A DNA stretch of 64,000 nt from Tubulanus polymorphus. Lineage: Eukaryota > Animalia > Nemertea. A program made the position numbers and the translations under genes. Every line of letters starts with the position of its first letter. The stretch's first letter is position 1. The stretch lies in NCBI RefSeq assembly GCF_964204645.1, contig NC_134027.1:13610485-13674484 (forward strand), read 5' to 3'. Below are positions 1 to 54,350 of this stretch, piece after piece. A model generated the notes under the pieces. The model had not been told where the DNA came from. It saw only the letters and a program-made list of their open reading frames with translations, and did no database searches.

Positions 1-2650
1 TTAAAAGAGGAGTATGTGAAAGATGAAGTTTTTAATAGAACATTAAATATTTGGAATCACTTTAAGATAGAAAATCATGGAGAATTAGTAGATTTATACT
101 TAAAATCAGATGTTATGATATTGGCTGATATATTTGAACAATTTAGAGAAGTTAATTTAAATCATTTTAATGTTGATCCTTGTTATTGCTACTCTAGTCT
201 TGGTTTAACCTGGCAATGTGGTTTAAAATATACAAATGTAGAATTAGATTTATTAAAAGAACCAGACATGGTTTTATTATTTGAAAAATCAATTAGAGGT
301 GGAATTAGTGGTGTTATGGGAGATAGACATTTTAAAGCAAATGATGAATATAAATTATTGTATATTGATGCAAATAATCTATATGGTTGGGCAATGATGC
401 AACCTCAACCATACAAAAATTCTATATTAACAGAAGTTGAAAATGATGATAAAACTGATTGGGAATGTGCAATTATGGGTTTAAAAGATGAAGCACCAAT
501 TGGTTATTTCTTTGTAGTTGATTTAGACTATCCTGATAACATAAAGTTTAAAACAAGAAACTTACCATATTGCCCAGAACATTTAGCCGTAGATGATAGT
601 TATTTAAGTGAATACCAGAAGAAAATAAAACCGAAAGATCATGTTTTTACAGAAAAATTAATACTTACTCAAAATAATAAATACAATTATATTGTTTATT
701 ATAGAATGTTAAAATTGTATCTAAAACAAGGAATGAAATTAACGAAAGTACATAGATATATTGAATTTAATCAATCGAAGTGGTTAGAAAATATATAGAT
801 TGATAGATTAATACTCAACAGAGAACCAAATCAAAAACAGATTTTTAAAAAGATTTCTTCAAATTAATGAAAAACAGTTTTTATGGAAAAACATGTGAAA
901 ATATTAGAACTAGAAATGATATTGAATAAGTAAATAATTCTGAACGATTAAGACATTTACAATCAAGTCCTAGACATTTAGGAAATAAAAGATTTGAAGA
1001 TTATTTAACAGCAGTAAAATTAAAAAGAACGTCAATGGAATTTAATAAACCTTTATTCATTGGTTCAACTTTGTTAGAAGTATCAAAATGTACGATTTTT
1101 ATTATAATGTTTTACAACCTCTTTTTAGGGAAAAGCATATTGAAATATTATATTTTGATTCTGTTACAGCTGACACCCCAATATTATTAAAATGTAATGA
1201 TAAAATATTGATAAGAAGAATTTCAGAAATAATTCCAAAGCAAAAGGAACGTTATATTTCATATGGTGAAAAAGAATCAATACAAATATATGGATTAATG
1301 GATGTTTGGACAAGAAATGGATGGAAAAAATTAAAGAATATTATTAGGCATAAAACAAATAAGAAAATCTATAGAGTTAGAACTAAATTAGGGTTAGTAG
1401 ATGTTACAGAAGATCATAGTTTAATTAAACGAAATGGTGATGAAATAAAACCAACTGATATAATAATTGGAGATGAATTATTACATAAAAGATTTTTCCA
1501 AAGAATGAATCATATGTCATTTGTTGAAATAATTGATAATATTTATAATATAGAACCCGAAACATTAGAAGAAAAAGAATATTTTATCAAAGGATTTTTT
1601 TATGGGAGATGGTTCAGCAGGTGTATATTATTATGTTTGGGGTAATAAATATTGTTGGTATGTATGCAATCAAGATTTGAAATTATTAGAAAGAATAAAG
1701 AAATATTGTGAAGAAGTTTATTCGCACAAAGTTTTCAAAATCATAGATGTTATGAAATCATCGCAATGTTATAGAATACATGTGAATAATCCTAACGAAT
1801 TCTATATTCATGCAATAGTGATAAGTAATACTTCAACCAAAGAAAAGATAGTTCCAGATTATGTATTAAATGCAAAATATAATTCAAGAAAATGGTTCTT
1901 CATTGGATTTTATGCAGCAGATGGTTCAAAAACCGCAAAACAATATCTTTAGCTCAGAAAGGAAAATGTGCAATAAGTGGGTTAAATGTGTTATGTAGTT
2001 CATTAGGTTTTAATATGAATATTGCATTGATTAAATCTAAACCAAATTGCTTTAATTTAAGCCATGTAGAAAATGAGATAACTGAAGAAGTTAGAGATTT
2101 ATTTGAAATATATAACCCAACAGATTATGTTTATGATTTATCAACTGAAGATGGAACATTTAACTGTTGATTTCCATTAATAGCGGTCAATACGGTTGCG
2201 TACATACTAAAAATCAAGACAAATGACATAACAAAAGACTTAAAAACATTAAAACATCATTTTGACTTTAGCAATTATCCAAAAGATCATGAACTATTTA
2301 GCAATGATAATAAAAAGCAGCCTGGTAAGTTTAAAGATGAATTAGGGGGTGATGAAATGATTGAATGTTTTGGGATAAGAAGTAAAATGTATAGTTATAG
2401 AACAAAAGATCATGAAGCTAAAAAGTTAAAAGGAATAACAAAGCATGTGGTTGATAAACAATAGAATTTCAAGATTATATAAAGTGTTTATATAACTCAA
2501 TTGTAATGAAACATAAAATGAATTGTTTAAGATCAGAAGATCACGAGATGTACATTAATGAAGTTGAAAAAACTAGTTTAAATCCGTTCGATGATAAAAG
2601 ATATATTTTGGGTGATGGAATAAAAACATTATCTTATGGCCATTTAAACA
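1..2650 (+). pseudogene. Protein-primed family B DNA polymerase (pPolB), disrupted, intein-containing
   Basis: Exo-III-like YLKSDV; motif A LLYIDANNLYGWAM; motif B KLMKNSFYGK (861-890); motif C YFD|intein|T; C-terminus FDFSNYPKDH..PGKFKDE..GIRSKMYS..KKLKGI..LNPFDDKRY; several frameshifts and stops. Confidence 0.93.
1160..2191 (+). mobile_element. Intein (Hint splicing domain plus LAGLIDADG homing endonuclease) inserted in pPolB motif C
   Basis: Block A SVTADTPILL right after YFD; block B RVRTKLGLVDVTEDHSLI (TxxH); endonuclease motifs FIKGFF.GDGS and FFIGFYAADGS; block F DYVYDLSTEDGTFNC; terminal Asn 2189-2191 followed by Thr, then polymerase sequence resumes. Two frameshifts and one TGA (2168). 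Confidence 0.9.
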
Positions 2651-3076
2651 TAAAATCAATATCATCATACTTGAAATCACTACTGGTTTCTTCAATTTTA
2701 TTTAATTGTTTAGGTTCTTCCATTTCATTTTTCTCAGTTAAATAAAATTCTATATTATTCCACATTTCATTTCGCTCTCTTTGTTTCTTTTTGTTTGTTA
2801 ATTCATCAAATGGAATTATAATATCGATGTTTAAAAAATTTACGATCTTATTTAAAAAGAATTCATAATAATTAATTGAATCTGTTATTTTATTATCCTC
2901 ATAATATCTTAATATTTTTGTGAATGTTTCTTTTATATTTTCGATATCTTCTTCTGTTAATTTAGGTTTTTTATAATAATCGTTAAATAATAAATATAAA
3001 TACATTTCCTTTTTTTGTGTGTTACATGTTGATGGAATAATTGTTTTTATTATATCTTTCTTAGTTATTTCACCAT
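2634..3076 (-). pseudogene. Maverick accessory ORF, unknown function
   Basis: 123-aa ORF convergent on pPolB; probable original start at 3076 (TAAAATG) with frameshift. Confidence 0.45.
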
Positions 3077-3410
3077 TTTATTTTCTATTATTTTCATTTT
3101 TTCAAGCCATTGCTTATATTCTGGTGTATGATCTTCCATAGAAAATATTTTAAAAATTTCATCTAGATATTTTAATTTTGGTTCTATGGGAAAATCTCTA
3201 GTTTTTTCATCACCCCATAAATTTTTTTGCCATCCACATTCGTTACAAAATATTACAGAATTTTCTTGTCTTAAGTACTCATAAATACATTGTGGGCATT
3301 TTTTCTATCATATCTTGGTAATAGATCTTCATTAAGTTCTTGGTATTTACTTACGTTTTCTTTATGATTTATTGTTCTATTATGTAGATTCAAATTACTT
3401 GTTGTAATAA

Positions 3411-3746
3411 TCAATTTTCAGGGCTATATTTTATTCGACAAGGCTCACAGAAATGATCTTTTATATTATTCTTATCATAAAATAAGAATGGTCTTTTCCA
3501 AATAATTTCAGGTTCAGTTTCAACAGAATTATTATTACTTTCGTTACTTTCAACATTAACCGTTGTGTCATTAATTTTACACTTCTCTGAATGTTTTTTA
3601 ACATAATTTCTTGAGAATAATTTATTAGAATTTGGGCAGTTTATTTTAGGGGGTTTGTAATTTGTATCATGTTTTTTCATATGTCGAGCCATATTACTTT
3701 TTCTTTGAAGTTCACCACAAATTTCACATGGTATCTTCTCATCCAT
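3411..3746 (-). CDS. C2H2 zinc-finger-containing viral ORF (probably frameshifted at its 3' end)
   Basis: CEICGELQRKSNMARHMKKH and a second degenerate finger; starts at ATAAATG. Confidence 0.65.
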   Translation of the reverse strand: MDEKIPCEICGELQRKSNMARHMKKHDTNYKPPKINCPNSNKLFSRNYVKKHSEKCKINDTTVNVESNESNNNSVETEPEIIWKRPFLFYDKNNIKDHFCEPCRIKYSPEN

Positions 3747-3813
3747 TTATTAAGGAAAAATTTTATCAAAATTAATTTTTAGTGATGCGAGGTAATTTTT
3801 TGTGTTATGAATA

Positions 3814-4560
3814 ATGGGTGAATTAAAAGAATATCGAATATTTGTTGAATCTAGAAAACTTACAAATTGTAAATCACATAATTTACTACTACAATTAGAT
3901 AGATAATTTAAAAATTGTGTAGATTTGAAATTAGTAAATGTAAGTTTATGTAACTCTTTTTATAATGTATCAGATAAAACTGATGAACAACGAGTAATAG
4001 TAAATGGCCTCATCTTATGCTAACACCAGGATCATATAATTTAGAAACATTAGCGAAAGAAATTAATAGAAAAGCTAAGATTAGGTAGTGAGTCTAGACT
4101 TAATATTAGATTTATAAAAAGTGAGAGTTCTAATAAAATTAAAATAAAGTTTGATGATGAAAGTGAAAAAAATGATATAGGGATAAAAACATATGCTTAC
4201 GGGGTAAAAAACCTTTAGCTAAACTGTTAGAATTCCTCCAGATAAAATTATTGTTAGAGGAAACATAGAAAGTAGATCAAATTTAATGCCTTTTACACAC
4301 TTTTATATTTATTGCAATTTAATTGATCCTACAAAAAAGTTTGAAGCAACTAAAGATTCAACTTGTAATTCCAGTATAATGAATATTTTACCATGAAAAA
4401 TGTTAAACAATTTGTAACACAAATAAACTATAATTTTACTGAATGTGGTTTCAAGCCTTTTATTTCAAAATTTAATACTTTTAAATTAGAAATCATAATG
4501 GTTACTTAATTGATTTAAATAACTTTCCTGTAATTTATGAATTAGTTTTAAGATGTAAAG
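3814..4560 (+). pseudogene. Minor capsid (penton)-like protein, disrupted
   Basis: Manual translation: LKLVNVSLCNSFYNVS, TPGSYNLETLAKEIN, FYIYCNLID, LIDLNNFPVIYELVL resemble Polinton minor capsid motifs; many frameshifts. Confidence 0.55.
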
Positions 4561-4581
4561 AGTTATTTTCTTACTTTATAA

Positions 4582-4959
4582 ATGAATATAACTGTTGGGC
4601 CGAGCATATGTTTTGGCTTTGATTTTAAACGTGTGAAAGAAATGAAATTTAACATTAATGATGTAATTACGCATATTAAAAATATTGCATTTTCTAGTGA
4701 AACAACATTTGAGTATGAAAAAACAATAGATAAAGAAACTTTTAATTTAGAAAAGATTACCGATTTAATTAGAGAATCTTTAAGATTTTATGAATTAGAT
4801 GAAGATTTTATCATTGATGATATTAAAAGAATAATAACTGAAATATATGAAAATGAAACTAATAATATTATAAATGTTGAAAAAATTATAACTAAGATAA
4901 CTAAATATTTTGAAGATAGTAATTTTTTTCAAAATAAATGGCGGATCAGAAGTGGATAA
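4582..4959 (+). CDS. Hypothetical Maverick protein
   Basis: 125-aa ORF starting at ATAAATG. Confidence 0.5.
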   Translation: MNITVGPSICFGFDFKRVKEMKFNINDVITHIKNIAFSSETTFEYEKTIDKETFNLEKITDLIRESLRFYELDEDFIIDDIKRIITEIYENETNNIINVEKIITKITKYFEDSNFFQNKWRIRSG

Positions 4960-5160
4960 TAACTGGTTTAAATAATGGAGCATTATTATCAGTTGGAACT
5001 GTTGGTTATACAATGGTATTAAAAAAAAGTATTTAGAATGGGAAGTATTAATGTTGATAGATTTGATATTAATGATATTTTAAAATTAACGTTAGCAGTT
5101 ACTTTATCTAATCAAACAATTGATCATTTGGAAAAACAAAAATATATTCCTCCCATATAA
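4938..5160 (+). pseudogene. Small hydrophobic protein, frameshifted in an A-run
   Basis: MADQKWIITGLNNGALLSVGTVGYTMVLKK / VFRMG..FDINDILKLTLAVTLSNQTIDHLEKQKYIPPI*; ATAAATG start. Confidence 0.55.
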
Positions 5161-5184
5161 ATGCATAATTGTTTTGCTAAATAA

Positions 5185-6775
5185 ATGGCATCTGCAATTA
5201 CAACTATTATAGGATCGGCAATTGTTAACGCTTTGGCATTTACAGGTGGTGGTTATTTATTCAAGCATATTGATAAAAATAGTTCATTAGGAGAACAAAG
5301 AAGACATAACTTAGCATTTGAAAAATATAATAAAGCTGCAGAAGAATATAGAGAAAAGAGACAAAACTATATGGATTATATTAACAAAGAATTATATGAT
5401 CAGAAAATTACACAGAGATTTTCAATCAGTTGATGAAGCTATGAGTTTATATAACGCAGTAACATACAAGAAAATTAATTTTAGAAAATTATTTGACGCC
5501 TGGGGAAAAATGTAGAATTTCTGGGCTAAGCTAATGTGGAATTGCAAATTTGAAATCGAAGTTTTAAGAAATTTGGGGAATGATGAGATTTGGCGATTGG
5601 GTAGATGATACAGGTCTTCGACTCTAGTAGTGGTTTAAATTTTTTTATTGAAAATTCTCAATAATTGATCGCGAACTTGTGACCGACTTCATTTACTTAT
5701 GTCTCTAAGCTGGTCTGCAACTTCATTGCCTCCATGGATGAAGAAAGAGCTCTTCTGATGTCTGCTTCATCATGACTTCGAGCATATCGTGTGGCTTAGC
5801 CAGCCGGCCCGGGCCACGGGTTTGGCTGTCACTCGATATCCTAGAGTCTTGAGTCTGGGTGGGTTGAAGTAGACATTGTCATTTAAAATAACATGCTTAT
5901 GTTGTTCTGTATGAATTACCCGTGTGTCATGTATGTTGTATTAATTTATTTTAAAATTTGTATTTATTGAATTTGGGAATTTTATCCCGGAATTTCAATG
6001 TAATAAGGATCAATAAAGAATTGAATTGAATTGTCACCTAATACACATGCCATCAGAGGACACGGAGCCGTATATGACAGCTATGCTATTATAAATTGCT
6101 AATCTCACTAAACTTGCATACTCCTAATATCAAACATATTTTCTAAAACGTTTGAATATTGAAATTATATGTTTACACATTTTCATATTGACCGCTTGTA
6201 GCCGCTGATGAAATTCACGCTTGCCCTACACACACCGTAGATAGCTTCGTCATTCCACCGGCATGCCCACGTCAGGGTCTGACTTTTATATCAGACTTCC
6301 GCATCGTGTATACATCCGCCATTTAACCGAATAATCCGATTTACTTATCATTTCTATTTATGCCTGCCGCTTCTGATATAATCATACATCCTTTACTATT
6401 ACAATACGTCTTCTAATGATATTCAATGCAATATAACATTTCGACGTTCAAATATAGGTCATTATATAATCACAGGAAGCCATTCTACATCTATGTCAAT
6501 AATATTTTGCAAGATAGCTTGTTTGTGTACACATAAACCTGTGACGTTTTGCACATCGATTTACGGCTGTCGTTTGTAAAATGACGCTGAATGGTTAGCA
6601 TTGTTTAGGTTTCATAATGGTAACGTTTTATAAGGCGTCAAAAAAATTACATTTATACAAACCTAAATTATCAGATTATTATACCCCAAGTAGTGAACAG
6701 AAGAAATATGAAATAATTTGGATTTTAGGTGGAACAGTTATTGTTATATTTGTAGCATATAAATTTACAAATTAG
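5185..6775 (+). pseudogene. Small protein with hydrophobic ends and coiled-coil middle, split by an insertion
   Basis: N-terminus MASAITTIIGSAIVNALAFTGGGYLF; removing 5492-6642 and one TSD copy restores ..INFRKLHLYKPKLSDYYTPSSEQKKYEIIWILGGTVIVIFVAYKFTN*. Confidence 0.7.
5492..6642. mobile_element. Non-autonomous TIR element inserted in the Maverick
   Basis: 10-bp TIR TTTGACGCCT / AGGCGTCAAA, flanking direct repeat AAAATTA (5485-5491, 6643-6649), higher GC than flanks. Confidence 0.8.
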
Positions 6776-6794
6776 TAATTTTTTTTCTAAATAA

Positions 6795-7175
6795 ATGGGT
6801 GATAAAGTTGATAATGTTGATATTATTCCTCATGACATAAATAAAACTAAATTAAACTTAATTATTTTTAAAATCTAAAATTATATATTTTTTATTATTA
6901 GTGGTTCAGTTACAATAAGTTCTGTTATAACATTTTTAGCAATATTCTCACCATTAACACCTTTAGCTATATCAATTGGTGTGTTAGGATTAAGTTCAAG
7001 TGTATTGACCGGCATAAGTTCAAAATTTAATATAAAAGGAAATAAAGAAAAAATAAAATCTAATATAAAAGAAATTAATAAATTAAAAAATACATTAGAT
7101 TATATTATTAGTTTAAATGGTAATGTAACAGTTGAAGAACGAGATAAATTATTAAAAGAATTAATTAATTATTAA
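6795..7175 (+). pseudogene. Putative two-TM membrane protein, frameshifted
   Basis: ATAAATG start; hydrophobic stretch (..ISGSVTISSVITFLAIFSPLTPLAISIGVLGLSSSVLTGIS..) then charged tail. Confidence 0.5.
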
Positions 7176-7191
7176 TTTTTTGATTATATAA

Positions 7192-8572
7192 ATGGCAATT
7201 AGTTTTCCAAAAGCTTTTCAATATAATAAATCAATTAGATATAATATTCCTGAAATAGATTTTAATAAAGATATTTCATATAGAAACGAAGTTTTAGATT
7301 CATTAATTAATTTAGATATTTATGTTACTGAAACTAATAATTCTAATGCAAAGATGGAAAATATATTTCATGTATATTTAATTGATTTAAAAAAAATGAA
7401 AGATGAAAAACAATGGTTATTAAAATCTAATATGAAGTATTGACAGAACCAATTAAATTTTGCAGTTTATTGTGCAACAACAGGTTGTGGAATTAGTTGA
7501 ATGATCATTTGAATAATTCTAAATATAAATTAATTCGAAGTTTATTTAGATTCCATACTTATTTTCAAATAAGATTAATATTAAATGAATTAGAGACTCC
7601 TTTACCAGGATCTAGCTATTTTAAAGAATTAGATAATAATAATAATTTATCAAAGTTTTATAAAATTTGTAATGAATTTAATATAGATATAAATAATTCT
7701 GATTTTAGAAAAAAACTTGGAACAATAAGATCACTTCCTTGTCCTAAAAAGAGTGCAGAATATTGTGCACTTCCCATACCATCTAATAGCTTTTATAATA
7801 TCTATAATAATAAATTAGGTTATTGTAAAATAGAAACTAAGGATTTAGAAACATTAAATTTCAATCAATTACCGAAATTCTATGATAATTTAAAACAAGA
7901 AAACAATAATGGTTGGGTTTATTTTATTTTAGAAAATAGTGAAGGTTTTACCAAGCCTGGTATACAAAGAATAAATCAATCAATTAGAACTTATTTGATA
8001 TGTATTCTATGATCACAGGTTGAAACAAGATCCCCAATAATTGGAAATTTAAATACACCATTTGATACACAAAAACAATTTAAAGTATTATTTGAAGATT
8101 CAATTCATAATGATAAAAATAGATCGATTCCAGAAAATATTTTAAGATATCAAAATTATTTAGATAAATCACATGTAAGATTAGATTATTGTATAGGCCC
8201 TAATTTGTTAATTATTTCAAATGATTTAATATTAAAAATGGGAAATATAATTGGTTATGATAATCTAATTAAAACTGCAACAATAAATAATAAGTTTGGA
8301 TTAAATGATATAAATAAAAAGATTATTACTTCTCCAAAACTAATGAAAGGTGAAAAAATTAAAAAACATATTCAATCAACAGAAACTAAAACTAAAATAT
8401 TAAATTGGATAATGATTCTAAAATAAAAGATTACAATACTACAGTAAATATTAAAACTGATAATATTCAACATGAAATAATTAAAACTAATAATGATAAT
8501 AAATCCCATGAAAATACTAAATTAGCTATTACTTGTATAGGAATTGTAATAGGAGGAATATTTTATTTTTAA
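7192..8572 (+). pseudogene. Maverick structural-cluster protein of unknown function, disrupted
   Basis: ORFs 7192-7443, 7497-8012 and 8205-8426 are one frame broken by TGA stops (..QNQLNFAVYCATTGCGISLNDHL..); C-terminal hydrophobic tail. Confidence 0.6.
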
Positions 8573-8595
8573 TTTTAATTTTTTTTATTAGATAA

Positions 8596-9970
8596 ATGGA
8601 TGTAGAAGGTGGAGAAGATATTGGTATGGATACTTTTGATGAACCCGGCATAACTGAAGAACAACCGCCTAATTTTAGTGAAACAAGTTTTAATGGCGGT
8701 AATGAGCCAGAATATGATAATGATTTAAATATGCCTGATTATATCAAAAATGCAGAATCACAATTAAATCCTGAAAATTTAGATCCAGATTTAGTAAAAC
8801 AAGATTTAGATAATTTAAACAAAGTACCTAAATTAGAACGTATAATTGAAAATTCTAAATTGAAATTATTAGATACTGGAAAGGTGATTATTATATTGAT
8901 ATCACTTATAAAAATAATAAAAATAAAATATTAACAAAATCAACTTTGAGTGATTTAGATCCAGATAGAATTTTAATAATTAGTAATAGTAATGTAATAA
9001 CTGATGTTTTAAAACAAGAATTAACTGATAATGATATAGACGTATTTAAACAAAGAATTAATGAATTATTTGAAATAACCAAAAAGAAATCAGAAACAGA
9101 AACAACTTCTGAACAGAATATAACTTCCAAAACTAGTAAACTTAAACCACATAAAGTTTCAATTGAAAAACTTTTACGGAATGGATTAATTAATACAAAA
9201 GATCAACGATTAGAATATTTAAATATATTTTCTGATAAAGCAATTAGAGAAATTATTAGTATAAGAAATAAAGTTGATAAATTTGCACATGATAAAAGTA
9301 TAAGAGATTTTAAAATTAGAACTTTAGAAAAAGATAGAACTGATAAAATTAATGAAATAGAACAATTAAAATTAGATAGAGATAATAAAGTTATTGCAGA
9401 AATTCAATTTAAAAAAAAAAATGCACATTTAGAAAAAGAAAAAGATGATTTAGAATATAACATAGAATTACAGAGAGAAGAAATGAAATTACTATCAAAA
9501 TCATATGATTATAATATTAATAGATTAAAAGTTATTTTTAAAGATTTGTTAATAAAACCAAATTCTGAAATATCATTGAAAGATAGAATAAAATTATTAT
9601 TTAAACTAGAAGGTATCACAATTCTTTCAATTCTAACAGCCGTAACTATGTTATTTACAACAATTGGTTTAGCAATATCAAATTCATTAAAAACTACGCC
9701 TACACCCAATAAACCGGATAAACCATCAAATAATAATACTTCTATACAAGATAAAGTTAAAGATGGTTTAAAGAAATTAGCAAAATATCTATGGGAACTA
9801 TCTAAAAAATCTGCTGCAGCTTTACCAGGAATTATTGCATCAATTGTTGGTTTTGTTTTAAAATCTGCTGGGAATATTCTTAACTTTGCTGCTGAACATA
9901 TTATTTTTATTTTTAATTACAATTGTTAGTGCCACTATTTTTGGGTTAGTGAATATGATAAAAAATAAAT
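8596..9970 (+). pseudogene. Large acidic / coiled-coil protein with C-terminal hydrophobic helices
   Basis: ORFs 8596-8934 and 8946-9929; GITILSILTAVTMLFTTIGLAI and AALPGIIASIVGFVLKSAG segments. Confidence 0.6.
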
Positions 9971-9993
9971 AATTAATTTTTTTTGTCATATAA

Positions 9994-11230
9994 ATGAGTG
10001 GGAGTTATATAAATCCTTCTAAGAATTCTAGAATATCTAATGCTATTAAAGCAGAGAGATCTCATCATATAATTACTCATAATCCTTCTAATATTAATCC
10101 TGATGAAACTTTATATGTTAGAATCCCGAGATAAAATACTTTTTATGTTCCAAATAGTATTTATTTATCGGCTGATATAAATGTAACTGGTAATAATAAT
10201 ATTTATATTGTAGATAATGTTGGGAGATATTTGATTAAAAAATTAACTACAAAGATTGGACCAGAAACAGTTTTCTCATTAGATGATCATAATTTATTTA
10301 TGCATTATAAAGATTTACGGTTAACAAAAGAAAATAGAAATAATATGATATTTCAAGGCATCCAATCAGAAAACCATAATAAATTAAGATCAGGAGCTAA
10401 TGACGCAACAGTAACTCGTGCTGCAGATAATTTGATAAAAAAGATTTATGGAAGCAAATATAAAATTCCATTAGATTTTGAATTGAAAAATAATAATGCG
10501 CCTTTATATAAATACGCAATTCAAGAAGATATTATATTCGAGATAACATTTGCTCCTGTTAATGAAATTGTATTATCAAGTGTAGTTAAAGAAAGATGTG
10601 GGTTATGAATTATCGAATATATGTTTAGAATATGATACAGATGAAAATATATCAAGCATAATTCAAACTCAATACAATCAAGGATTTTCATTATTATATG
10701 ATTATATTGATAAATTTAAAACTGTAACTATTAATGCAAATGACGAAATAATTAATGAGAATATTAACTTCCCATGAAGATCTATTAAAGGTATATTAAT
10801 ATTTTTACCATTGCAACATATTCTAATGGTACAATAAATATTGATAATTATTATAATCCTGAAATATCTAAGGTAGAAATGACTATTGAAGGTACAGCAA
10901 ATAAAATATTTTGTCAAGGAATGAGAATGATAGATCAGTGGCCAGAAATTAGAAAACATTTTATGAATGAAAAAGTAAATCATCTGAAAATTGTAATATC
11001 AATCAAATTGATTATTATAACTGCAATAAATATGCATTATGGTTAGATTTTAGAACAACAGAGGATAATTCATTACATGGTTCTGGGAAGAAATTACAGA
11101 ACACTAAAGATGGAATACAATTATTCATGAAAAAGAAAAAAGGAGACAAAAATTTCAAAATGCACATTTATATCATATCTGACGAGCAATTAAATATTAT
11201 AAATTCTCAATTAGATAGTATTCAATATAG
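9994..11230 (+). pseudogene. Major capsid protein-like gene (about 410 aa), disrupted
   Basis: ATAAATG start; HIITHNPSNINPDETLYVRIP..KYKIPLDFEL..IIFEITFA..NICLEYD..NFP.RSIKGILIF..YALWLDFRT..LHGSG..IISDEQLNI; size, beta-rich pattern and position fit a double jelly-roll MCP (inferred). Confidence 0.62.
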
Positions 11231-11261
11231 GAAATATAAAGTTAAAATTAACGATATATAA

Positions 11262-12402
11262 ATGGGGGGTAAAAAAAACTCCTAATACTAAAGAACAATA
11301 TTTAAGAAATTTATATTACAACCCTGAGAGTTCGGTTGCTTATTCTTCTACCAGAAATATATGGCGTCAAGTAAAACAAGATAAATTAGATAAGATAATC
11401 CCACAAAATTTAGTTAAATATAAAGATATAAGTGAATTTATGTTAGAACAACCAACATATACAACACATAAAAAAATTGTTAGAAAATATAAAACTCGTA
11501 AAACTATGGTAAGTTATGTAGATCAACAGTGGCAAGGATTGATATTGGATTGATTTAATTGATATGAAAAATGTTAAGAAAGATAATGATGATTATTGGT
11601 GGATCTTAAACATAATTGATATTTTTAGTCGTTATGTATGGAGCTTCCCACTTTATAGAAAAGATGCTGCACAAACACAATTAGTTTAGAAAAAAATTAT
11701 TTCAGGTGGTAAAATAAAGCCAGAAAAAATACAATTTGATGATGGAAAAGAATTTGATAATTCAGTAGTTCATGAACTCTTAGATAATCATAATATTGAA
11801 TATTTTTCAACAAAATCGGATAAAAAAGCGGCAGTTGTTGAACATTTAATAGAACATTAAGAACAAGAATGTGGAAATATTTTACAGCAAATAATACTTT
11901 TAAATGGATTGATGTTTTACCAAAATTGATAGAAGTTTATAATAATTCTTATCATTCTTCTATTGGAATGAAACCTATCGATGCTAGAAAACCTGAAAAT
12001 GCTGAAATTGTTTGGAATCATTTATATGGAGCATTTCTTGTAGATGATTTTGGTGAACCTAAATTTAAAGTTGGTCAAAATGTTAGAATGTCTAAGTATA
12101 AAAAGATATTTGACAAAGGATACGATCGTAATTTTACTAGAGAAATATATAAAATAAAAAAGGTAATAACAACAAAACCATATTTCTATAAATTAGAAGA
12201 TTTAGATGGTGAAGAAGTTGATGGGTATTTTTGTGAAGAAGAATTAAGTTTAACTACTGAAAATCTAGAACACGAATATAAAATTTAAAAAGTATTAAAA
12301 ACAAAAACTGTTAATAGAAAAAAATATCCTTTAGTAAAATGGGTTTGATGGCCAGATAAATTTAATGAATGGATATTATCAAGTAAAATTAAAAATATAT
12401 AA
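11262..12402 (+). pseudogene. Retroviral-type (rve) integrase with C-terminal chromodomain, disrupted
   Basis: LYYNPES, YTTHK, QWQ..DLIDM, IDIFSRYVW, IQFDDGKEFDN, AVVE.FNRTLRTRMWKYFT, YNNSYHSSIGMKP, KFKVGQNVR, LVKW..WPDKFNEWI. Confidence 0.9.
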
Positions 12403-12765
12403 ATGAATAAGGAATTATTTATATTTGAACCTCATAATATGTTAATTTCTGGTGTAACAAATTGTGGAAAAACTTATTTTATATTAAATTTATTAGAAAC
12501 TGTTTATAAAAACTATTTTGATAATATAGTATTATTTTGTCCAACGTATGAATTTAATCAAACTTATGATAGAAATATTACTAGAAATAATAAATTTATT
12601 GTATTAGATCCTAAAACAGTTAAAGAAAATTTAGATAATTGTATTAAAATAGCAATTGATATTTATAAAGGATCAAATACATTATTTATCATAGGTGATT
12701 GCGCAAATTTACATGATTCAAAAGTTAGAGAAAGTGAGTTATGTTATTTAGCTTTTTCTGGAGTA
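12403..12765 (+). pseudogene. A32/FtsK-like packaging ATPase, 3' truncated
   Basis: Walker A ISGVTNCGKT, Walker B-like TLFIIGDC, LAFSG then abrupt switch to LINE sequence. Confidence 0.85.
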
Positions 12766-13910
12766 ACCCGTAGGTTAGGTGAGGATATATGAGGGTATAG
12801 TAAAGTGTAACAAGGTGTTGATAGTCAAGTATGTTCTTGGTTTTGTTCATTATTCCAGTGATCCGAGAGATTTTTTCGTGTATTTTTTCGATGTGTGGTT
12901 TCCAATTGAGATTTTCGTGTATCGTTAGACCTAGGAAGTCTGTTTGCTTTACTCGTTCTATAACGGTATCGCCTAATTTGATGTGAAAATTGTGATGCAA
13001 GAACGGGTTTCTTTGGTAGTTATGAAATATAATGTATTTAGTTTTTGTATGATTAGGTGTTAATCTGTTGGCTCGAAGCCAGTCATTTAATTTTAAGAGA
13101 TCAGTATTTACATTTTGTGCGAGAGTGTTGAGGTTCTTATGAGATGAGATGCAATTTGTGTCGTCTGCGAATAGAATGTAGTTTAAATGGTCAGTACAGC
13201 GGTAAATGTCATTGATATATACGAGGAATAAAAGTGGGCCAAGGATGGAGCCTTGGGGGACGCCTATATTTGTGAAGAGTGTTGAAGAGGTTGAAGATGA
13301 AACGTAGTGTTGCCTGTCAGAAAGATAAGAGGTAAACCAATTTAAGGCTGTTCCTCGAATACCTTAATGTTCAAGCTTTTTGAGTAGAATGTTGTGGTTC
13401 AGGGTGTCGAAAGCTTTGGAGAGGTCTAGAAAAATACCAATGGTCCAATTGTGGTTATCTAAGGAATTTGTAATTCTGTCGATGAGTTCAAGAATGGCAT
13501 GTTCCGTAGAGTGGTTTGGTCGAAATCCATATTGATTTGGGAATATTTGTTTTTCAATGAATTATGAGTTTTTGGTGAACGAGTTTCTCGTATATTTTTG
13601 ATATAGAGTTGAGTAGCGATATTGGTCGATAGTTTTTAACTAGATTCTTCTCATCCTTTTTGTGTAGGGGAATTATTTTGGCTGTTTTAAGATGATTTGG
13701 AATAGGCCTAACCCCTGTTTTGAGAGATTGAATGATAAGGTGTGTGAGAGGACAAGAGATATAGTTAATGATTATTTTTAATGTATGCGTTGAAATGTTA
13801 TCTTGGGCTGCTGAGTACCTTTTTGTTTAAGATTCCTTACAACTTCTATGACATCTTGTTCACAAACTGGTGAGAGGAAGAAATTTGAATTAAGTTTGGG
13901 GACTTTATTT
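12766..13910 (-). mobile_element. LINE (CR1/L2-group) reverse transcriptase fragment
   Basis: Minus strand: [64 protein letters not shown]. Confidence 0.9.
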
Positions 13911-17030: not shown

Positions 17031-18570
17031 CTAATGTCAATCTATTTCAACCTGACTTGAGAGCATTCCGGGTGGCCTAGCTCGCTCATTTTTAGTAGTA
17101 CATACCTGATAAAAGGTCTTAGTAGGACCAGAAAGGACAGGCAGTCGAACTTAAACATCGTTTTTTAATCCATTTGAAACTGTATTGAAGGATATCCAGT
17201 CAACAGCTGCCATTTTGAAAATTACTGGAGGGCGCTGGCACCTGTGGACTTAGTCAGTAACCTGTCTGTGGTTTAGTTTCACAATCGGATATTTTCACAA
17301 ACCACAGTCAGGAATGGGAACGTCATTTTTCGACGAAATCTTTGTGAGTCAATTTGACTCACGAGTAATTTGCCTGGCATTTTCTGGTCTTTTGAGATAT
17401 CCGTCTAATTTTTGTTGTAGGCCTAATCAACGCACAACAGATTCGTAGTTTGTTTGATACCTATAACACCTCACCTGACTATCTTAATCCATGTGCAAAT
17501 TGGCCGTAAAGTGAGAGTAAATTTCCGTCAATTCAACGGCGGCCATTTTTAAAACTTGTGGAGGGTGCTGGCACCTGTTGACTGAGGCTAGGATAACAGC
17601 GCAAACTAACGTAACGAAATGACGAAATTGAAAAAATTAAGAAATCAACACTAATGCACATTTTCCATAATTTATCATTTCGTTATTTATCATAGAAAGC
17701 ATGAAGATTTGAAATATATGTTGGAAAACCATCAAAAATGAAAATTATCGTTTCGTCTTGGAAGTTTTATATAAATTATATGGAGGTCACCTTGTCCATC
17801 ATGCCACATGTATGCAATACAGAGAAATTACCGGTAATTAATTTCTCAAAATAATGTTGATTAATCACTCGAAACATACATAAAATTGGATTATTTCAAA
17901 AGGTAGGCCTACCTGTGTTAGTTACTATCACTAAATGATAATCCAAACAATGATGAATGCTTTTAGGCCTACATGTCTACTAGAAACTGCCATGTATTGC
18001 TATTCAAATCATATTTTTTGCGCTTAGTTGAACGGATGTGGTCCCTTCAACAACGTAGACTTTCAAAATCAAGAGGCATTTTGTCTGAATTCGGATGCCA
18101 AATAGGTATAAAATCAAGTTGAATTGCTCTCGTAGCTTATTTCCTATTCATTTCTATAGACCTCATTTCTGAGTCGTCCCTTTAGTGACATGGTTTTATT
18201 AATAGACATAGTACCACGCGTCCAGCGGAAGCAATGCATACACTGAACAGGTGCGCGAACATCTAAATCATCAATTCTGACTAGATTGAAAAGATTTTTC
18301 CAATTATGAAATCACCTAACCTTATCGTAAACTATTATCTATTATTTAATGTAAATAGTAGAAAATCTTTAAAAAAATGTCCATTACCCTTTAAAGGCCC
18401 CTTGAATAATACCCCTCAAATTTCTTATCAATGGTCTTTCAGGAACCCTGATGGTGTTCTTGGATCATTATTTTTGTCAATCTTCATTTGAATCTATTTC
18501 TATTTTTCAGTCTGCCTATGTGATGGCGCTGAGAAATGCTATGATTATAAAAGTCAACCGCTTTGTGAAT

Positions 18571-21500
18571 ATGAGTAGGATTTTCGGAATTCTTCTATTA
18601 TTCAATATCTGTTTCTCATATGGAGCAACTATTGATGTGCATATCAATGAAGATCAATGGAGGAAGTCTGGCGACGATTGCATATATAGTGTCTTCATTG
18701 GATCTGGATGGACATACCGAATTAGTGATGGCTCCCAGCAACCACAGAGATCTTATCTTATCAAGATGCAGTCAACTGGTGCAATTCTACTTCAGCGATT
18801 TCCTAGTTGTGGAGAGATCATTACTTATAACCCTCTGACTCTGAACGTCAATGCTTCATATATGTCATCCAGTTTTAGTTTATTCAATCTAGATATTTAT
18901 TTACACAAGGATTGTGATGCTGATAACAAGCATCTACTACTGCCCAGCGACCATAGTGAGGGCACTATTATGGTATATACTAGCTATATACAGAGATGTT
19001 ATGTAAAAAATCAGTTATTACTCAACGTTGGTGCATTGATTCCACAATATTTAAGGAAGTGTGTGGATGAGTATGTACTTGAATCAGCCCTTAAAGATTT
19101 TAACATCTACCCTTTAGTTGGTGATTTGGTAACGAATGCAGATATTTGTTTCACAGGAATGGAATTGAATATAACCCTCACTTTACTGGCATCATGTAGT
19201 AATGAAAACAGAGTAATTCGAGTATTTCTCATTTTGAAAGCAATTGGTCAAAGTGAAAATATTAAATCCGAAATTAGAGTTAGACGAGACACATCTGATA
19301 ATCCAACTACACCAAAATTCCAACAAGCTGAATATATCAAGCATGTTGTTGAAGAACAGAACCCGCCAGTTGAAATAACAACAGTAAATGCATTTGATCC
19401 GGATTTGGGCGCTTCTGGACAACTTACTTATTCGATGCTAGCTCTCCGTGAGGGACGATCCCAAAATATGTTTTCGATTAATGAGATAACTGGTCAGATA
19501 AGAACTAGACAACGCTTAGACCGTGAAGATATATCAATTCATTATTTCCAAGTTGAAGTAAAGGATGATGGTAATCCTGTGAAGAAGGATCAGGCTATAT
19601 TGACCATTTATGTTGAGGATATCAATGACTTTGTGCCTAAATTTGAACTTCCATCTTATACATTGAGTATATCTGAAAACACTCAACTTGGAGCAACTGT
19701 TTTAACGGTACGTGCATCAGATAAGGATTCAGGATCAAATGCTGAAATCCGTTATAGCATTCTAAATCCTAATGTTTTGCATGATGACTTTAGTATCAAT
19801 CCTCATAGTGGAAGTATAACAACAAAATCCTTTTTGGATCGTGAAAAAATGGATAAATATATCCTGAAAGTTCAAGCTGCAGATCAGGGGCCACTTTCGA
19901 ACCAACATTCTTCAACAGTTCCTGTAACTATAATGATACTTGATGAAAATGATAATCATCCACAATTTTCGCAAAAGTCATACACAATTGATATAATGGA
20001 AGATATTGATACTACTCACCAGCCTTTAATTGCTTCAGTTTCTGCATTCGACCCTGACAAAGGAATCAATGCACGTGTTAGATATACTATTGTTGGAGGC
20101 AATAGTGATGGTAATTTTCAGATAGATAAGGTCACTGGTCAGATATCACTTCTACATCCTCTTGATTACGAAAATCGGAATGGCCGTGTTTATCGCCTTC
20201 ATATTCGTGCACAAGATGGTGGACAACCACCTCGAACAAATAGTACTACCATTATAGTCAATGTTGTAGATGTTAATGACAATAGCCCACGGTTTTTTCC
20301 AAGTCAATATACAGAGTCCGTTCTTGAAAGTGAGAACCCAGGATTTTCTATTCTGCGTATTCAAGCTTTTGACAGTGACTCTGGAATCAATTCTGAATTA
20401 GTCTATTCTATTCAGAATGCTCCCGATGATATGCCAATTGCTATTAATGGAAAAACAGGATGGATTACCATAAATGGGCACCTTGATCGAGAAATAACCT
20501 CAAAATATAGTTTCAATGTTGAAGCTAAGGATCACGGAACTCCATCGCGTTCGGCTACTGCTGATGTTGAAATTGATGTAATAGACGTTAATGATAATAG
20601 TCCACTTTTTAATCCACGCTATTATGAAGTGGCAACTTCAGAAGAAACTCCCATTGGATCTCCAATTACAGTAGTAACTGCAAGCGATGCTGATTCAATA
20701 GAAAATGCACGAATCGTTTATGCAATTACTGGTGGAAATATTCATAATACCTTTTCAATTATGAGCCAAATGGGTAAGGGCATGATATCATTGTCTCAAA
20801 AATTAAATTACAAGGATCAGAATCAATACATATTAACGGTAACTGCTACAGATCCAGGTGGGCAAACGGATACATGTACTGTTAAGGTTAATGTAACTGA
20901 TGCTAATACATACCGACCTCGATTCCGTGGAACACCTTATGTTGCTCGGGTAAAGGAAAATGTGCCTGTTGGTGCCAGCATCTTCAAAGTTTTAGCTGAA
21001 GATGATGATGCTGGTGAAAATGCGCGAATCAGCTACACCATTAGCGATGATACTGACATATTCCAAATTGATATGAATACTGGTGTCATCAGTACAAAGA
21101 AGTTGTTGGATCGAGAAACTTCACCTGGTTATACCATAGCGGTTATGGCACAGGATCATGGAATACCTAGAAAATCTGATGCAACTGATGTTTTCATACA
21201 AGTTGAAGATGTTAATGATAATGCTCCTGTCTTCGAGAAACAGTCTTATAATGGTTTGATTAATGAAAAAGTTCCAATTGGAACAAGTGTTTTGAAAATT
21301 TCTGCATCGGATCAAGATTCAGGTCAAAATGGAAATATTCATTATACATTCGAAGGGGGTTCCAATGGTAATGGTGACTTCACTCTCGATGGCACATTTG
21401 GAGTCATTAGAACGGCAAATCTTCTCGACCGTGAGACTACATCATTATACCAGTTGATAGCTTTTGCAGTTGATGATGGATTGCAACCAAAATCCACATC

Positions 21501-22099
21501 AGTTTCAATACAAATACGCGTAGAAGATGCAAATGATAATGCCCCACAGTTTGAGTCGCATACAATACAATTCAAAGTCTTGGAGAATAGCCCGATAGGT
21601 ACAGTAGTAGGTGTTGTACATGCAGTTGATCCAGATGAAGGTGAAAATGCAGTTATCAGATATTTCATAGTGGGACAAGATAGTCCTCCAGCATTTTCAC
21701 TCGATAAGTCAGGCGACGATGCAGTAAAGATTATTACAAATGTACATCTCGACTATGAAGGTGGCCCTACTCAATATATCTTTACCTTGCAAGCTTACTC
21801 GGGCACACTGTTGAATAAAGTTCTAATTCATGTTGAAGTTCAGGATGTGAATGACAACAAGCCAGTTCTGCAAAATTTCAGGATAATTTTCAACAACTAT
21901 TTGGATCATTTTCCTGTGAATATCATAGGACATGTACCTGCTTTTGACCCTGATGTTTCAGACAGGCTGATCTATAAGTTTATCTCCGGTAATGAAGCAA
22001 ATGTGCTGCATCTCAATCTAACTACTGGAGCATTGAAATTAAACTACAGACTTAATTCAGATGTACCAAAGCATGGAAAGCTGATCATAATGGTTTCAG
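18571..22099 (+). CDS. Celsr: Celsr/Flamingo first coding exon: signal peptide, prodomain, furin site, cadherin repeats
   Basis: MSRIFGILLLFNICFSYG signal; RVRR; repeated LDRE/DxNDNxP cadherin motifs; IGHVPAFDPDVSD; donor CAG|GTAAGT. Start could be upstream (ORF opens at 18451). Confidence 0.93.
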
Positions 22100-22188
22100 G
22101 TAAGTGCATCAAAAAAATTATTGTTTGGTCCATGGAATCACCATAAAGTCAGATCCATTCAATCCAGATCCAGACATCTTTTAAAATA

Positions 22189-51278: not shown

Positions 51279-52023
51279 TTACGCAGTTTATTCATGCAGC
51301 AATAGAATAAATCTTCATGTAGCTTGGTGTGAATTACTCTTAGAATCAAAAGCAAATACTAATCAATTTTGATTTTAACTATCAAACCTAAATTCAAGAA
51401 AACACTAACCAACCACAACCTAATCAAATTTCAAATGAAACAAATATAACAACAACAATGCTTATCTACTCTGTGTATATGTGTATCAATTATGCACTAC
51501 AAATAATCATTAACTTATCAGTCCCGTATTTGAAATCTGTGTAGAAATGAGGTCTCATAGATAGTTACCAAACGTCTTTGGCAAAATTATAAATAAGTTC
51601 CTGCGAAACAGAGTGAAATATTGGAAACGTCCAGTTCCAATATTTCTATCGAACGAACTCAATGAGTTTGCCACGATTTCTGCTTTGATGAATCGCCAAA
51701 TACTAACAGTTAACTTCAAATGTGATCATCCAGCAAAAGTTCTGATAAATCTCTTGATTCCAGGAGTGGAGAAATTATATGAAATTTCTCAAATTCTCTG
51801 TTTTCAGAACCAGTTTCCTCACAGCAATAATTTAGCTCATTCCTTAATTTAAATATAAATCCGCGGAGGATAAACTGCTTAATTTGGGGCTAAAAATGTT
51901 AGATAAATACTTGTATTCCTTGGAAACTTCGAAAAAATAGTTCCAAGGAAAATAGTCCCGTTCGAAATCATGAAATGGCATATTAGTCTAGCAAAAACTA
52001 GTTATTGAGGCCTAGTCTAGCTA

Positions 52024-52770
52024 TTGAACCCACTTGTACTATTACAGAAGAGAGCTGTAAGATTAATTTCTCATTCAAATTACCTAGCACATACAGATCC
52101 CATATTCAAACGTTTAAAAATCTTGAAACTCCGCGATATTAATGACTTACAATTAGCTGTTTTCGTTTATAAATTTGCCAATTCCTTACTACCTGCATCT
52201 TTCAACGGTTATTGGAGATCAAAATTCCAAATACACCGACGTAATACTAGGAAAAAGTTCGATTTAGAAATTGATAAATTCAAAACCCTAAAACGAAAAT
52301 TTTTGGTCAAATTGTCCAATTGGTCAATTGCACCAATCCTCTGGAATAAGCTACCAAATTCGCTTAAAGAAAAACCTAGTATTAATTCGTTTCGTCTTAG
52401 CTATAAAAAACTGAAGTTTTCCTTATAAAGCTATTTTGTGAGCTGTTCAGATGCTCCAATTATTCCTAATTCATCTATTTCTGTGTGGTGTGTTATTATG
52501 AACATGTGATCGAGTGTGTGAGGGGTATGTGTGTTTCCGCGTGTATGCGTACGTCTGAGTGTGGTATGAATGTAAGGGGCCTTGCATACATAAGCATTTT
52601 TTTGCTTCTCCAAGACCCTGCCCTTTTATTACAACATGAATATCACGTATAGACTAGACCTTAACACTAGTCTATGCGCCCATGATGACACTTATATATA
52701 ACAGTACCCTTGTATTCTTTTATATAACTTTGTATGCATAATCGTGTTATAATTCGAGGGAAAATAAAAG
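52024..52770 (+). mobile_element. LINE 3' end fragment (second copy 56238-56984)
   Basis: LLQKRAVRLIS..AHTDPIFKRLKILKLRDI..APILWNKLP..SFR, typical CR1/L2 ORF2 C-terminus, then 3' UTR with AATAAA. Confidence 0.8.
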
Positions 52771-54049
52771 GTATTAATCGGCAAATATTGCCCAAAAATC
52801 TCAAACTATCAACAGTCCATTCGCCAATAGACCAAATGATAATCAGATTATTCCTAAATATCAGTTAACTAAGATTTTCCTCAGAATTTCTGAAACTACC
52901 AAAAAGATTACCAAATAAGGATATATCATGTGATCAAATGATAATCACTAAAATGAACATTAATCTGGTGATGAAATTCAACTACGCATTGAAAAAGATA
53001 GAAACATCAACTTGGAACGTCTCAAAAAAGTGGTGAAGCTTCTTCCCAATCATGGGAAAAAGTAGGGATTTTTGACAGTGTTTAAGTGAAGCAAATGATT
53101 TCATTGACATGGTCACAAAATCCCTCAAAACTGAAAGAGTATGATCATAAATCATCGAAATTGAATAGATTCTATCATGAATACCTTAATAACGATCTAA
53201 AATACAGATGTGTTTGGCAGTAGTTAAAATTGTATAAAGCAATGCGTTGTTGATATTGTAGGCCTTGAGGAGTCATCGGAATCTCGTCGAAATTTGACAT
53301 TAATCGCTAAATCAAACAGTCTGTCGGTCAGCACTAATTAAAAAAAGGGGAATTGAAAGAAATTGAAGCCAGAATCAATGCTCAGTCGGATCATATAAAG
53401 AATATGTGAACAATTTGACTGTTTAACAGATGCATTTTTCACATGTTCTTCATATGTTGTTTCTGTCTCTCTCAATGCATCGATTTCCCATCTTCTTGTT
53501 GGATTTGTTACATTTGCTGTAATTAACCTCATCACTTCCGCAGATAATGTAACGTACCTCACCAGAATTCAAACCCTATGGCATCAATCAATTCAAATAA
53601 GAATGGTATTAGAGGCTGTTAAAGTTACTAATCCTCCATCTATGTGTAAAAATTGGAACTAAATTGAGGCAGACTATAGGAAGCCTATAGTACGGTTACA
53701 CACCAGGGGTGTAATGGCTCACCACACCAGCAATTGTAGTAAACATATATATTTGCGACGTAAATATATGTCACAAGTGGTTAAAACATTTCTAAAAATT
53801 ACATTAGAGTTGAGGTGAGTTCTGTTTTGTCATGGATATTTCAGAATTTTTACCTTGAATGTCCTTGAAAGGTCCGGGAGTTTAACTTCTTACCAAGTGT
53901 ATGAACCCTGCCACAGACTGCAGTGGATTGAAGCAGCCAACTGGTTCCTTTAGCGTTTCAGCAGAGAAAATTGCAATCCTGACGGGTATGCTTGGGTTTT
54001 GGGAATTCTGTCAGAGGGTTATTTCATTCGGGCCCCACTGCAGCACTCG

Positions 54050-54350
54050 ATGAGAGAAATCCAGTACACACTTATGATGCAGGAAGAAGTCATTCCCCAA
54101 CAAGCTCATTGGCTATGACCATGGGTACCTGGAATTCAAGAGCACCTAGTTTAAGGGTAACATCAACTGCCCACTTAAAGTGACAAGGCCTGCCCATTTT
54201 CTGTGGTAGGGTTACCAACTACCGATTTCAGATCACAAGGGTCTTGGCTCCTAGGGCTAGCTTCCCAGAATGAAAATCTAAGAACAGTTGCTGAGGCTCC
54301 TGTATCCAGGAGGATCGACGCTGTGGCCCTCAAGTTCACCTAACCCAATA
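54050..54350 (-). mobile_element. LTR retrotransposon aspartic protease fragment (second copy 58264-58564)
   Basis: ILLDTGASATVL and ..GNDFFLHHKCVLDF on the minus strand, frameshifted. Confidence 0.65.

Follow-up and report, generated by a model that had tools for sequence, protein, structure and literature searches.

The DNA analysed here, referred to below as the window, is a stretch of 64,000 nucleotides from the nemertean Tubulanus polymorphus (contig NC_134027.1, positions 13,610,485 to 13,674,484 of the forward strand). Its first part is occupied by a degraded Maverick (Polinton) element, in which the gene coding for a protein-primed family B DNA polymerase (pPolB) is interrupted by a broken intein with a LAGLIDADG homing endonuclease (Table 1). 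The window begins inside the Maverick, and the opposite end of the element has been removed by a long interspersed nuclear element (LINE). The GC content of the Maverick part (position 1 to ~12,770) is 20-32% versus ~36% beyond it. A CELSR-type cadherin gene follows from 18.4 kb, with further LamG exons of this multi-exon gene reaching 62 kb, and the host is therefore an animal. The animal setting had been proposed in a first-pass annotation of the window, and besides the cadherin gene the multi-copy reads from the same species described below bear it out.

Table 1. Features of the window, in order of position
Feature	Position	Strand	Evidence or remark
Maverick element, degraded, most genes broken	~1-12,770		Upstream of the CELSR-type cadherin gene
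N-extein, pPolB polymerase domain up to motif C (YFD)	1..1159	+	Start precedes the window
Class-1 intein at the pol-c site, degraded	1160..2191	+	1,032 bases, 344 codons
Hint N-terminal part, block A (Ser1) and block B (TEDH)	1160..1500 (end approximate)	+	TIGR01445
LAGLIDADG homing endonuclease, blocks C and E, with two frame changes	1570..2085 (ends approximate)	+	Homology to P0002, P0006, P0140, P0155
Hint C-terminal part, block F (VYDLST) and block G (terminal Asn)	2086..2191	+	Motifs, alignment
C-extein, rest of pPolB with the +1 Thr	2192..2652	+	Frame break near 2460
High-copy repeat (1.18 kb) nested in the Maverick copy	5464..6641		Read depth
Double-jelly-roll major capsid gene, broken, likely	9994..11258	+	ESM Atlas, Pfam
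Retroviral-type integrase gene, broken, likely	11262..12285	+	PF00665 rve, Chromo lead
A32-type packaging ATPase gene, truncated by the LINE	12403..12770	+	PF04665, 29.3 bits (cut-off 22.8)
LINE reverse-transcriptase fragment truncating the Maverick	12728..13363	-	PF00078, E 1e-14
Large exon of the CELSR/flamingo-type cadherin gene	18406..22146	+	PF00028 (eight matches), PF23592, PF02210; single-copy depth

The insert splits the catalytic motif C of the polymerase as YFD|T, with YFD extending up to position 1159 and SVTADTPILL starting at 1160. This is the pol-c site, which the available text of PMC549080 defines in the family B DNA polymerase (PolB) of Mimivirus as YGD|TDS. Inside the insert, TEDHSL, GFF/GDGS, GFYAADGS and YVYDLSTEDGTFNC come in this order, followed by a TGA at 2168-2170 and by FPLIAVN, which ends at 2191; then comes TVAYILKIKTND. 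VYDLST, the terminal Asn and the +1 Thr are all present in this copy, behind the stop. Besides the TGA, the frame of the insert changes near 1595-1608 and near 1945-1955, the C-extein motif reads TVA versus the TDS of the family, and the flanking polymerase is also frame-broken, near 790-810 and about 1080 in addition to the break in the C-extein (Table 1). Judged by its reading frame, the window copy is dead. All motifs, coordinates and breaks were found where the first-pass annotation had placed them, including the two frame changes, the stop and the decay of TDS to TVA by which it had called this copy dead, and its length of ~344 codons was confirmed. The GC content of the insert (0.263) is like that of its flanks (0.250 and 0.269).

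Positions 1160-1603 matched the curated model TIGR01445 (intein_Nterm) with 37.6 bits (cut-off 24.5) and were 67% identical to the protein P0002 (E 1e-52), so that the insert cannot be put down to chance. In the PDB, the first stop-free piece matched PI-PkoII (E 1e-4), and the insert as a whole, read with X at the breaks, aligned end to end with the intact P0002 intein at 58-61% identity. Two results were weaker: the Pfam model Intein_splicing reached only E 0.007 on the window piece, under its cut-off, and the LAGLIDADG models gave no Pfam match with the window's endonuclease pieces alone. As these broken pieces are too weak for Pfam alone, the LAGLIDADG domain of the window copy is assigned through its intact relatives.

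Searches with the insert retrieved the full-length polymerases P0002, P0006, P0140, P0155 and P0157 and the partial P0009, all with the same intein at the same site; judging from these proteins, the intein family is present in several other Maverick-type lineages as well. A representative search added fragments only (P0279, P0282, P0285, P0295 and P0309). The cut-off of PF14528 (LAGLIDADG_3) was passed by all seven pPolB-type proteins scanned, P0002, P0006, P0140 and P0155 among them, and that of DNA_pol_B_2 by P0002, P0006 and P0140. Intein_splicing was passed by P0140 and P0009, while P0002, P0006, P0011, P0155 and P0157 stayed under the cut-off. Ser1, TEDH, both LAGLIDADG acidic motifs, VYD, the terminal Asn and the +1 Thr are kept in 6/6 intact relatives. 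Every one of the 16 complete pPolB-type inserts ends with Asn before Thr, 14 of them with a penultimate His, and no mini-intein was present among them. Mean pairwise identity was 0.52 and 0.53 for the two Hint parts, 0.50 for the nuclease and 0.29 for the linker. That the nuclease is as conserved as the Hint parts implies selection on the nuclease. P0011 was folded in place of the longer P0002, and the best PDB matches of its model (pLDDT 90.8) were endonuclease-bearing inteins (TliVMA, E 7e-17); the model also matched the I-DmoI and PI-PfuI folds in the PDB and giant-virus polymerases in BFVD. The annotated Hint and LAGLIDADG intein was thus upheld, the former by TIGR01445 and the latter through the intact relatives and the P0011 fold.

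P0011 itself belongs to a 55-member family on large contigs (P0011, P0124-P0137). P0011, P0125, P0126 and P0128 are complete stand-alone open reading frames (ORFs) made up of the whole intein with 11 residues before and 4-7 after it, and P0133 shares their start; the intein of this cluster is 90% identical to that of the polymerase P0009. The cluster may represent a free-standing or domesticated homing gene.

The host gene was assigned to pPolB via P0002 (PF03175, 62 bits), which is collinear with the window; the window's own polymerase pieces, being broken ORFs, gave no Pfam match alone. The closest polymerases, P0392-P0395, are 68-79% identical over the N-extein and 78-86% over the C-extein (positions 1-795 of the N-extein are 79% identical to P0392 versus 54% to P0002), and they read KHIEIMYFDTDSYILK, which corresponds to the window's two flanks without the insert. 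The flanks therefore rejoin into a contiguous motif C, and both these read-through polymerases and the DNA_pol_B_2 domain of P0002 agree with the pPolB host named by the annotation. Among the best 120 of 949 polymerase matches, 89 were intein-free, one carried an intein and 30 did not cover the site. One intein-free pPolB, P0503, comes from Actinostola sp., and the Maverick-type pPolB P0403 is labelled Sulfurimonas in UniRef, where it is probably mis-binned.

Empty sites were also found in sequencing data from the window's species. Of the words sampled, 22-32% occur in four runs of study P1; no RNA run was among those listed. X6 is a raw genomic run with the same species label from study P3. 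From about 12% of X6, 9,079 reads matched positions 1-3000, only 37 of which were at least 99% alike to the window copy. Compared to a single-copy exon (mean depth 6.3), the depth was 39x over 1201-1700 and 22x over 1701-2100; the exteins reached 67x and 83x. This corresponds to 20-40 intein-bearing copies per single-copy depth, a rough figure because likeness thresholds of 80% and 90% are mixed in it and free viral DNA may contribute. Among the joints listed for X6 reads that precisely skip the insert, nine letters separate 1159 from 2201 in 39 reads, 26 reads join 1163 to 2201, and two contigs of run X1 show similar joints. These reads and contigs are intein-free alleles. At the stop codon 141/144 X6 reads differ from the window copy, and at the first frame break 174/241 do; both lesions therefore belong to the window copy and not to the family. 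X1, one contig of which differs by a single letter and a single gap from 4,348 bases of the host exon, is possibly the source of the assembly and for this reason was not counted as independent; the marine metagenome run X5 (share 0.05; 25 mostly partial pieces) was not counted either. In the window's species the intein is a multi-copy family, polymorphic for presence and absence, and not a one-off passenger.

Alleles with and without the intein could be compared in the cluster of P0140, which looks like a multi-copy family in a large genome. Fifteen of its 136 members, on contigs of 57 kb to 1 Mb, were examined; seven carry the intein, six are free of it and two are too short. Three of the free alleles share 98.0-98.9% identity with P0140 across the first 1,042 residues, and the other three 93.5-95%. 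Computed at the protein level only, the difference between plus and free alleles amounts to 42% within the ten residues preceding the site and to 40% within the ten that follow, versus 17% and 9% in the bins next downstream and 0.6-2% at residues lying further upstream. Between plus alleles there is no difference at the site (0), and the free alleles have three site types, with DTDA or DCDS replacing DTDS. This peak would be explained by co-conversion of donor flanks, by survival of cut-resistant empty sites, or by both, and each of these would imply cutting at the site.

YTDCDS is the common form of motif C in one Maverick family, where it is found in 8/11 further members of the P0409 cluster covering the site as well as in P0408 and P0409; two free alleles of the P0140 family (P0253 and P0255) have it too. 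This sharing possibly reflects a site-limited exchange between families.

For the phylogenetic analyses, 274 inteins were extracted, of which 172 were full length and 147 remained after removal of near-duplicates; 86 were used together with the X-read of the window. Inserts of <300 aa, near-duplicates and 61/127 rows of RNA-primed PolB were left out of the trees, and the rows of the intein tree, which was rooted on topoisomerase II inteins, were chosen by likeness to the query. The eight pPolB-type inteins form one clade (100/100), nested among the pol-c inteins of RNA-primed PolB and apart from those of topoisomerase II. This clustering with same-site inteins, together with the YGD|TDS definition, supports the pol-c assignment of the annotation. 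The same material includes RNA-primed polymerases that carry two or three inteins, as well as type II topoisomerases whose inteins, located at D|TDG, belong to the same subfamily (P0004, P0010, P0012, P0013; P0029, P0030, P0050, P0053, P0055, P0075).

In the extein tree (52 rows; P0006 and P0009 were left out because of no or short alignment), free rows are the nearest neighbours of every one of the five plus rows, five changes are needed, and forcing the five plus exteins together was rejected by a direct IQ-TREE test (p-AU 3e-49). The P0006 intein, 48-49% identical to those of the window and P0002, groups with them (96/85), although its polymerase gave no BLAST match with the window exteins at E 1e-3 and gives a good alignment over the intein alone and a weak one close by. 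From this placement and the distant polymerase we infer that the intein entered a distant pPolB class by a horizontal jump.

We hold with good confidence that the window contains a broken LAGLIDADG intein at the pol-c site of a multi-copy animal Maverick pPolB, that intact copies would splice, and that the nuclease likely spreads the intein. Splicing would follow the class-1 route, with an acyl shift at Ser1, attack by the +1 Thr and cyclisation of the Asn; as it restores the catalytic motif YxD-TDS, carriers could still replicate. The nuclease would cut empty sites in related Maverick copies, and repair would copy the intein in. Such homing among close relatives, integrated or replicating in one nucleus, would keep the nuclease under selection, so that intein and polymerase would mostly diverge together and empty alleles persist. 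At least one jump, into the class of P0006, would have occurred, and the window copy would have decayed after its integration.

The main rival is that of a passive passenger, namely a real intein of old entry that was amplified with the Mavericks and splices but does not home in the animal, the empty alleles being separate lineages or clean losses. Several points weigh against our reading, and some of them favour this rival. For the polymerases of the first group, the intein and polymerase trees have the same shape and identities track each other (61/49/44% versus 54/47/43%); this suggests, at the level of trees, either many losses or a long shared divergence in which homing stayed among near relatives, and one old gain with many clean losses would explain it as well. 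The AU test of the tree kit gave p 0.114 for the same constraint on the exteins, despite a log-likelihood gap of 1,129 and 0% bootstrap. The window copy is dead, and splicing and homing of the family are predicted from sequence. P0002, P0006, P0140, P0155 and P0157 enter the comparison as protein sequences, and in the window's species no intact full-length intein copy was seen in short reads, which cannot phase one. The roughness of the copy number and the absence, among the contig pieces listed, of one bridging the Maverick copy to unique host DNA also count here. A passive passenger is nevertheless unlikely, since the nuclease is conserved across >50% divergence with no mini-intein in the 16 complete inserts, plus and free alleles whose backbones are as much as 99% identical show a steep peak of difference at the site, and the intein has apparently jumped to P0006.

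Genomic DNA around intein-bearing pPolBs was sought in contig collections. In viral_contigs none was found (one weak match to the window piece and none with P0002, P0155 or P0140), the scan of metagenome_contigs gave two loci at 29%, and alignment scans gave 80 viral and 23 prokaryotic loci. No intein-bearing pPolB was seen among all 106 loci; a junction pair could be read in 63 of them, each an RNA-primed PolB, and in the other 43 there was no pair.

Regarding the origin, the homing intein would have come from an RNA-primed PolB, likely that of a giant virus, in a single old transfer for which the YxD-TDS motif common to both polymerases opened the way. Sister to the pPolB clade are 23 RNA-primed PolB rows, most of them ending G[FST]PL-x-x-x-N (96/93), and the 10/10 IMG/VR loci scored as being of the G[FST]PL type are labelled GVMAG. 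Four of the 23 rows are T4-like phage polymerases (P0138, P0034, P0291 and P0020), so that a giant virus is only the likely donor. Of the first-pass proposal that the donor was of the type of the nucleocytoplasmic large DNA viruses, the origin among RNA-primed PolB inteins is thus supported by the tree, and a giant virus is likely, with phages also in the sister group. The likeness to the Mimivirus intein that the annotation had seen does not make this intein the nearest relative: the identity with the window is 36-40%, the nearest relatives are others and the Mimivirus intein sits further out in the tree than the sister group; nor does the non-His penultimate residue provide a link, given that 14/16 intact pPolB-type inteins end His-Asn. 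A special tie to Mimivirus was therefore rejected.

A donor among T4-like phage polymerases or in an unsampled host, or flow from pPolB to RNA-primed polymerases, is improbable. The phage-type rows in the sister group would fit it, as would the position of the pPolB clade, which branches beside that group, with a long stem (0.35), and not within it, and the rows had been picked by likeness to the query. However, four successive nodes of RNA-primed PolB inteins enclose the pPolB clade (99/97, 94/79, 99/99 and 96/93), all ten G[FST]PL-type IMG/VR loci have the giant-virus-type label, and giant viruses and Mavericks share eukaryotic cells. The pol-c inteins of the T4-like phage-type polymerases P0014, P0020, P0034, P0138 and P0291 (phrog_262 matches P0014, P0020 and P0034 with E 1e-155 to 1e-163) group with giant-virus-type ones, a passing observation that would be consistent with intein exchange between phages and eukaryotic viruses.

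That the insert is contaminant viral DNA or an assembly chimera is very improbable and was rejected. It is true that no contig piece listed joins the element to unique host DNA and that just 37 of the 9,079 X6 reads are 99% alike to the window copy, but the element is full of stops and frame breaks, contains a nested high-copy repeat and is truncated by a LINE, the family is multi-copy and diverse in same-species runs from two studies (P1 and P3), and the X1 contig matches the neighbouring host exon almost throughout. Hardly credible, and likewise rejected, is a non-splicing Hint domain of the Hedgehog or bacterial intein-like type, or a bare nuclease insertion like HNH/VSR in Polinton pPolBs, for which the sub-threshold Intein_splicing scores of the window piece and of five relatives and the non-His penultimate residue of the window copy would speak, since P0140 and P0009 pass Pfam, all splicing blocks and the +1 nucleophile are kept, and, with the catalytic motif interrupted at a known intein site, the unspliced product would lack motif C.

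A bolder form of the preferred homing model can be put forward only tentatively, and we would not quite give it even chances: a live homing intein may cycle through the Mavericks of the animal germline, converting empty copies, driving escape to DTDA or DCDS, jumping between polymerase classes and budding off stand-alone genes such as those of the P0011 cluster.

The remaining features of the window are in keeping with the listing in Table 1. Depth over the nested repeat is 1,300-2,000 versus 160-600 in most Maverick bins, and 264 and 235 reads jump over it. The capsid candidate gave ESM Atlas values of 0.95-0.97 to double-jelly-roll, Capsid_N and Sputnik-MCP clusters, with recognition below threshold, and a Pfam Capsid_N match of E 0.077. 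Two consecutive pieces of the integrase candidate match successive parts of PF00665 rve (E 0.008 and 0.14), both under the cut-off. An adenoviral-type cysteine protease was not seen among the ORFs of the window in a general Pfam scan and may lie beyond it. ATAAATG stands at the starts of nine Maverick ORFs (3744 on the minus strand, 4578, 5181, 6791, 7188, 8592, 9990, 11258 and 12399); with 33 occurrences found across the window versus 33.75 expected, it is not enriched and deserves mention only for its position at start codons. TAAATG is the poxvirus late-promoter motif. In an intron of the cadherin gene there is an apparent 4.2-kb tandem duplication (~51500-55200 and 55700-59400), with ORF translations that are the same or almost the same at an offset of 4,214, which is possibly an assembly artefact.

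Inteins have been described as absent from animal genomes. Those of invertebrate iridoviruses likewise occur in a DNA virus of animals, but, as Bigot reportedly described in 2013, they reside in free viruses and in another host protein and not in heritable chromosomal copies. The pol-c inteins of RNA-primed PolB (Mimivirus P0210, in the available text of PMC549080; archaeal PolI site III) share with ours the YxD|TDS site, Ser1, TEDH, LAGLIDADG and a length of ~350 aa, and pPolB-type inteins are 36-44% identical to the Mimivirus one. In contrast to these, the host is here a protein-primed Maverick polymerase, for whose closeness to RNA-primed PolB we make no claim at the BLAST level, and the inteins form a clade of their own with many integrated copies in an animal. 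According to the accessible part of PMC10710043, inteins in viral-like DNA polymerases lie on nuclear scaffolds of Klebsormidium, Tetrabaena and a labyrinthulomycete, likewise carried into the eukaryotic nucleus inside an endogenous viral polymerase gene. However, the hosts are algae and a protist, 'animal', 'metazoa' and 'polinton' occur 0 times in that part, and the family described here is multi-copy with plus and free alleles. The HNH and VSR insertions of Polinton pPolB2 (PMC10748475, as far as its text is available) are likewise nuclease domains inserted in a Polinton polymerase, and the accessible text of PMC11161782 reads nuclease insertions in polinton pPolB as possible intein invasions; the available main text of PMC10748475 has neither Hint, LAGLIDADG nor the word intein, whereas here a complete Hint and LAGLIDADG intein splits the catalytic motif. 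The word intein is absent from PMC8502044, and the accessible parts of PMC12220804, PMC3671162 and PMC5718144 have general content only. The openly accessible main texts searched contain no description of a Hint/LAGLIDADG intein in the polymerase of a Polinton or in the nuclear DNA of an animal; the supplements of PMC10748475, Repbase or InBase may already include such sequences. What is new, as read from the alignments and trees, is a pol-c intein in a new polymerase class, inside animal endogenous elements, with signs of homing. This novelty is tempered by the gene being virus-derived and not a host gene, by the algal precedents and by the predicted nature of homing and splicing, which are read from the sequence.

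The window and its relatives thus represent a complete intein family in heritable multi-copy DNA of an animal, within an endogenous virus-like element. The pol-c allele reaches from RNA-primed to protein-primed polymerases, a sign that giant-virus-type replicons and Mavericks have exchanged DNA, and the path from virus to integrating element to germline is a route that could bring inteins into animal genes. A genome containing plus and empty copies by the dozen offers a natural population for the homing cycle, with invasion, co-conversion, target escape and loss. Since intact carriers would have to splice in order to replicate, splicing in animal cells would be a test of whether the Mavericks are active.

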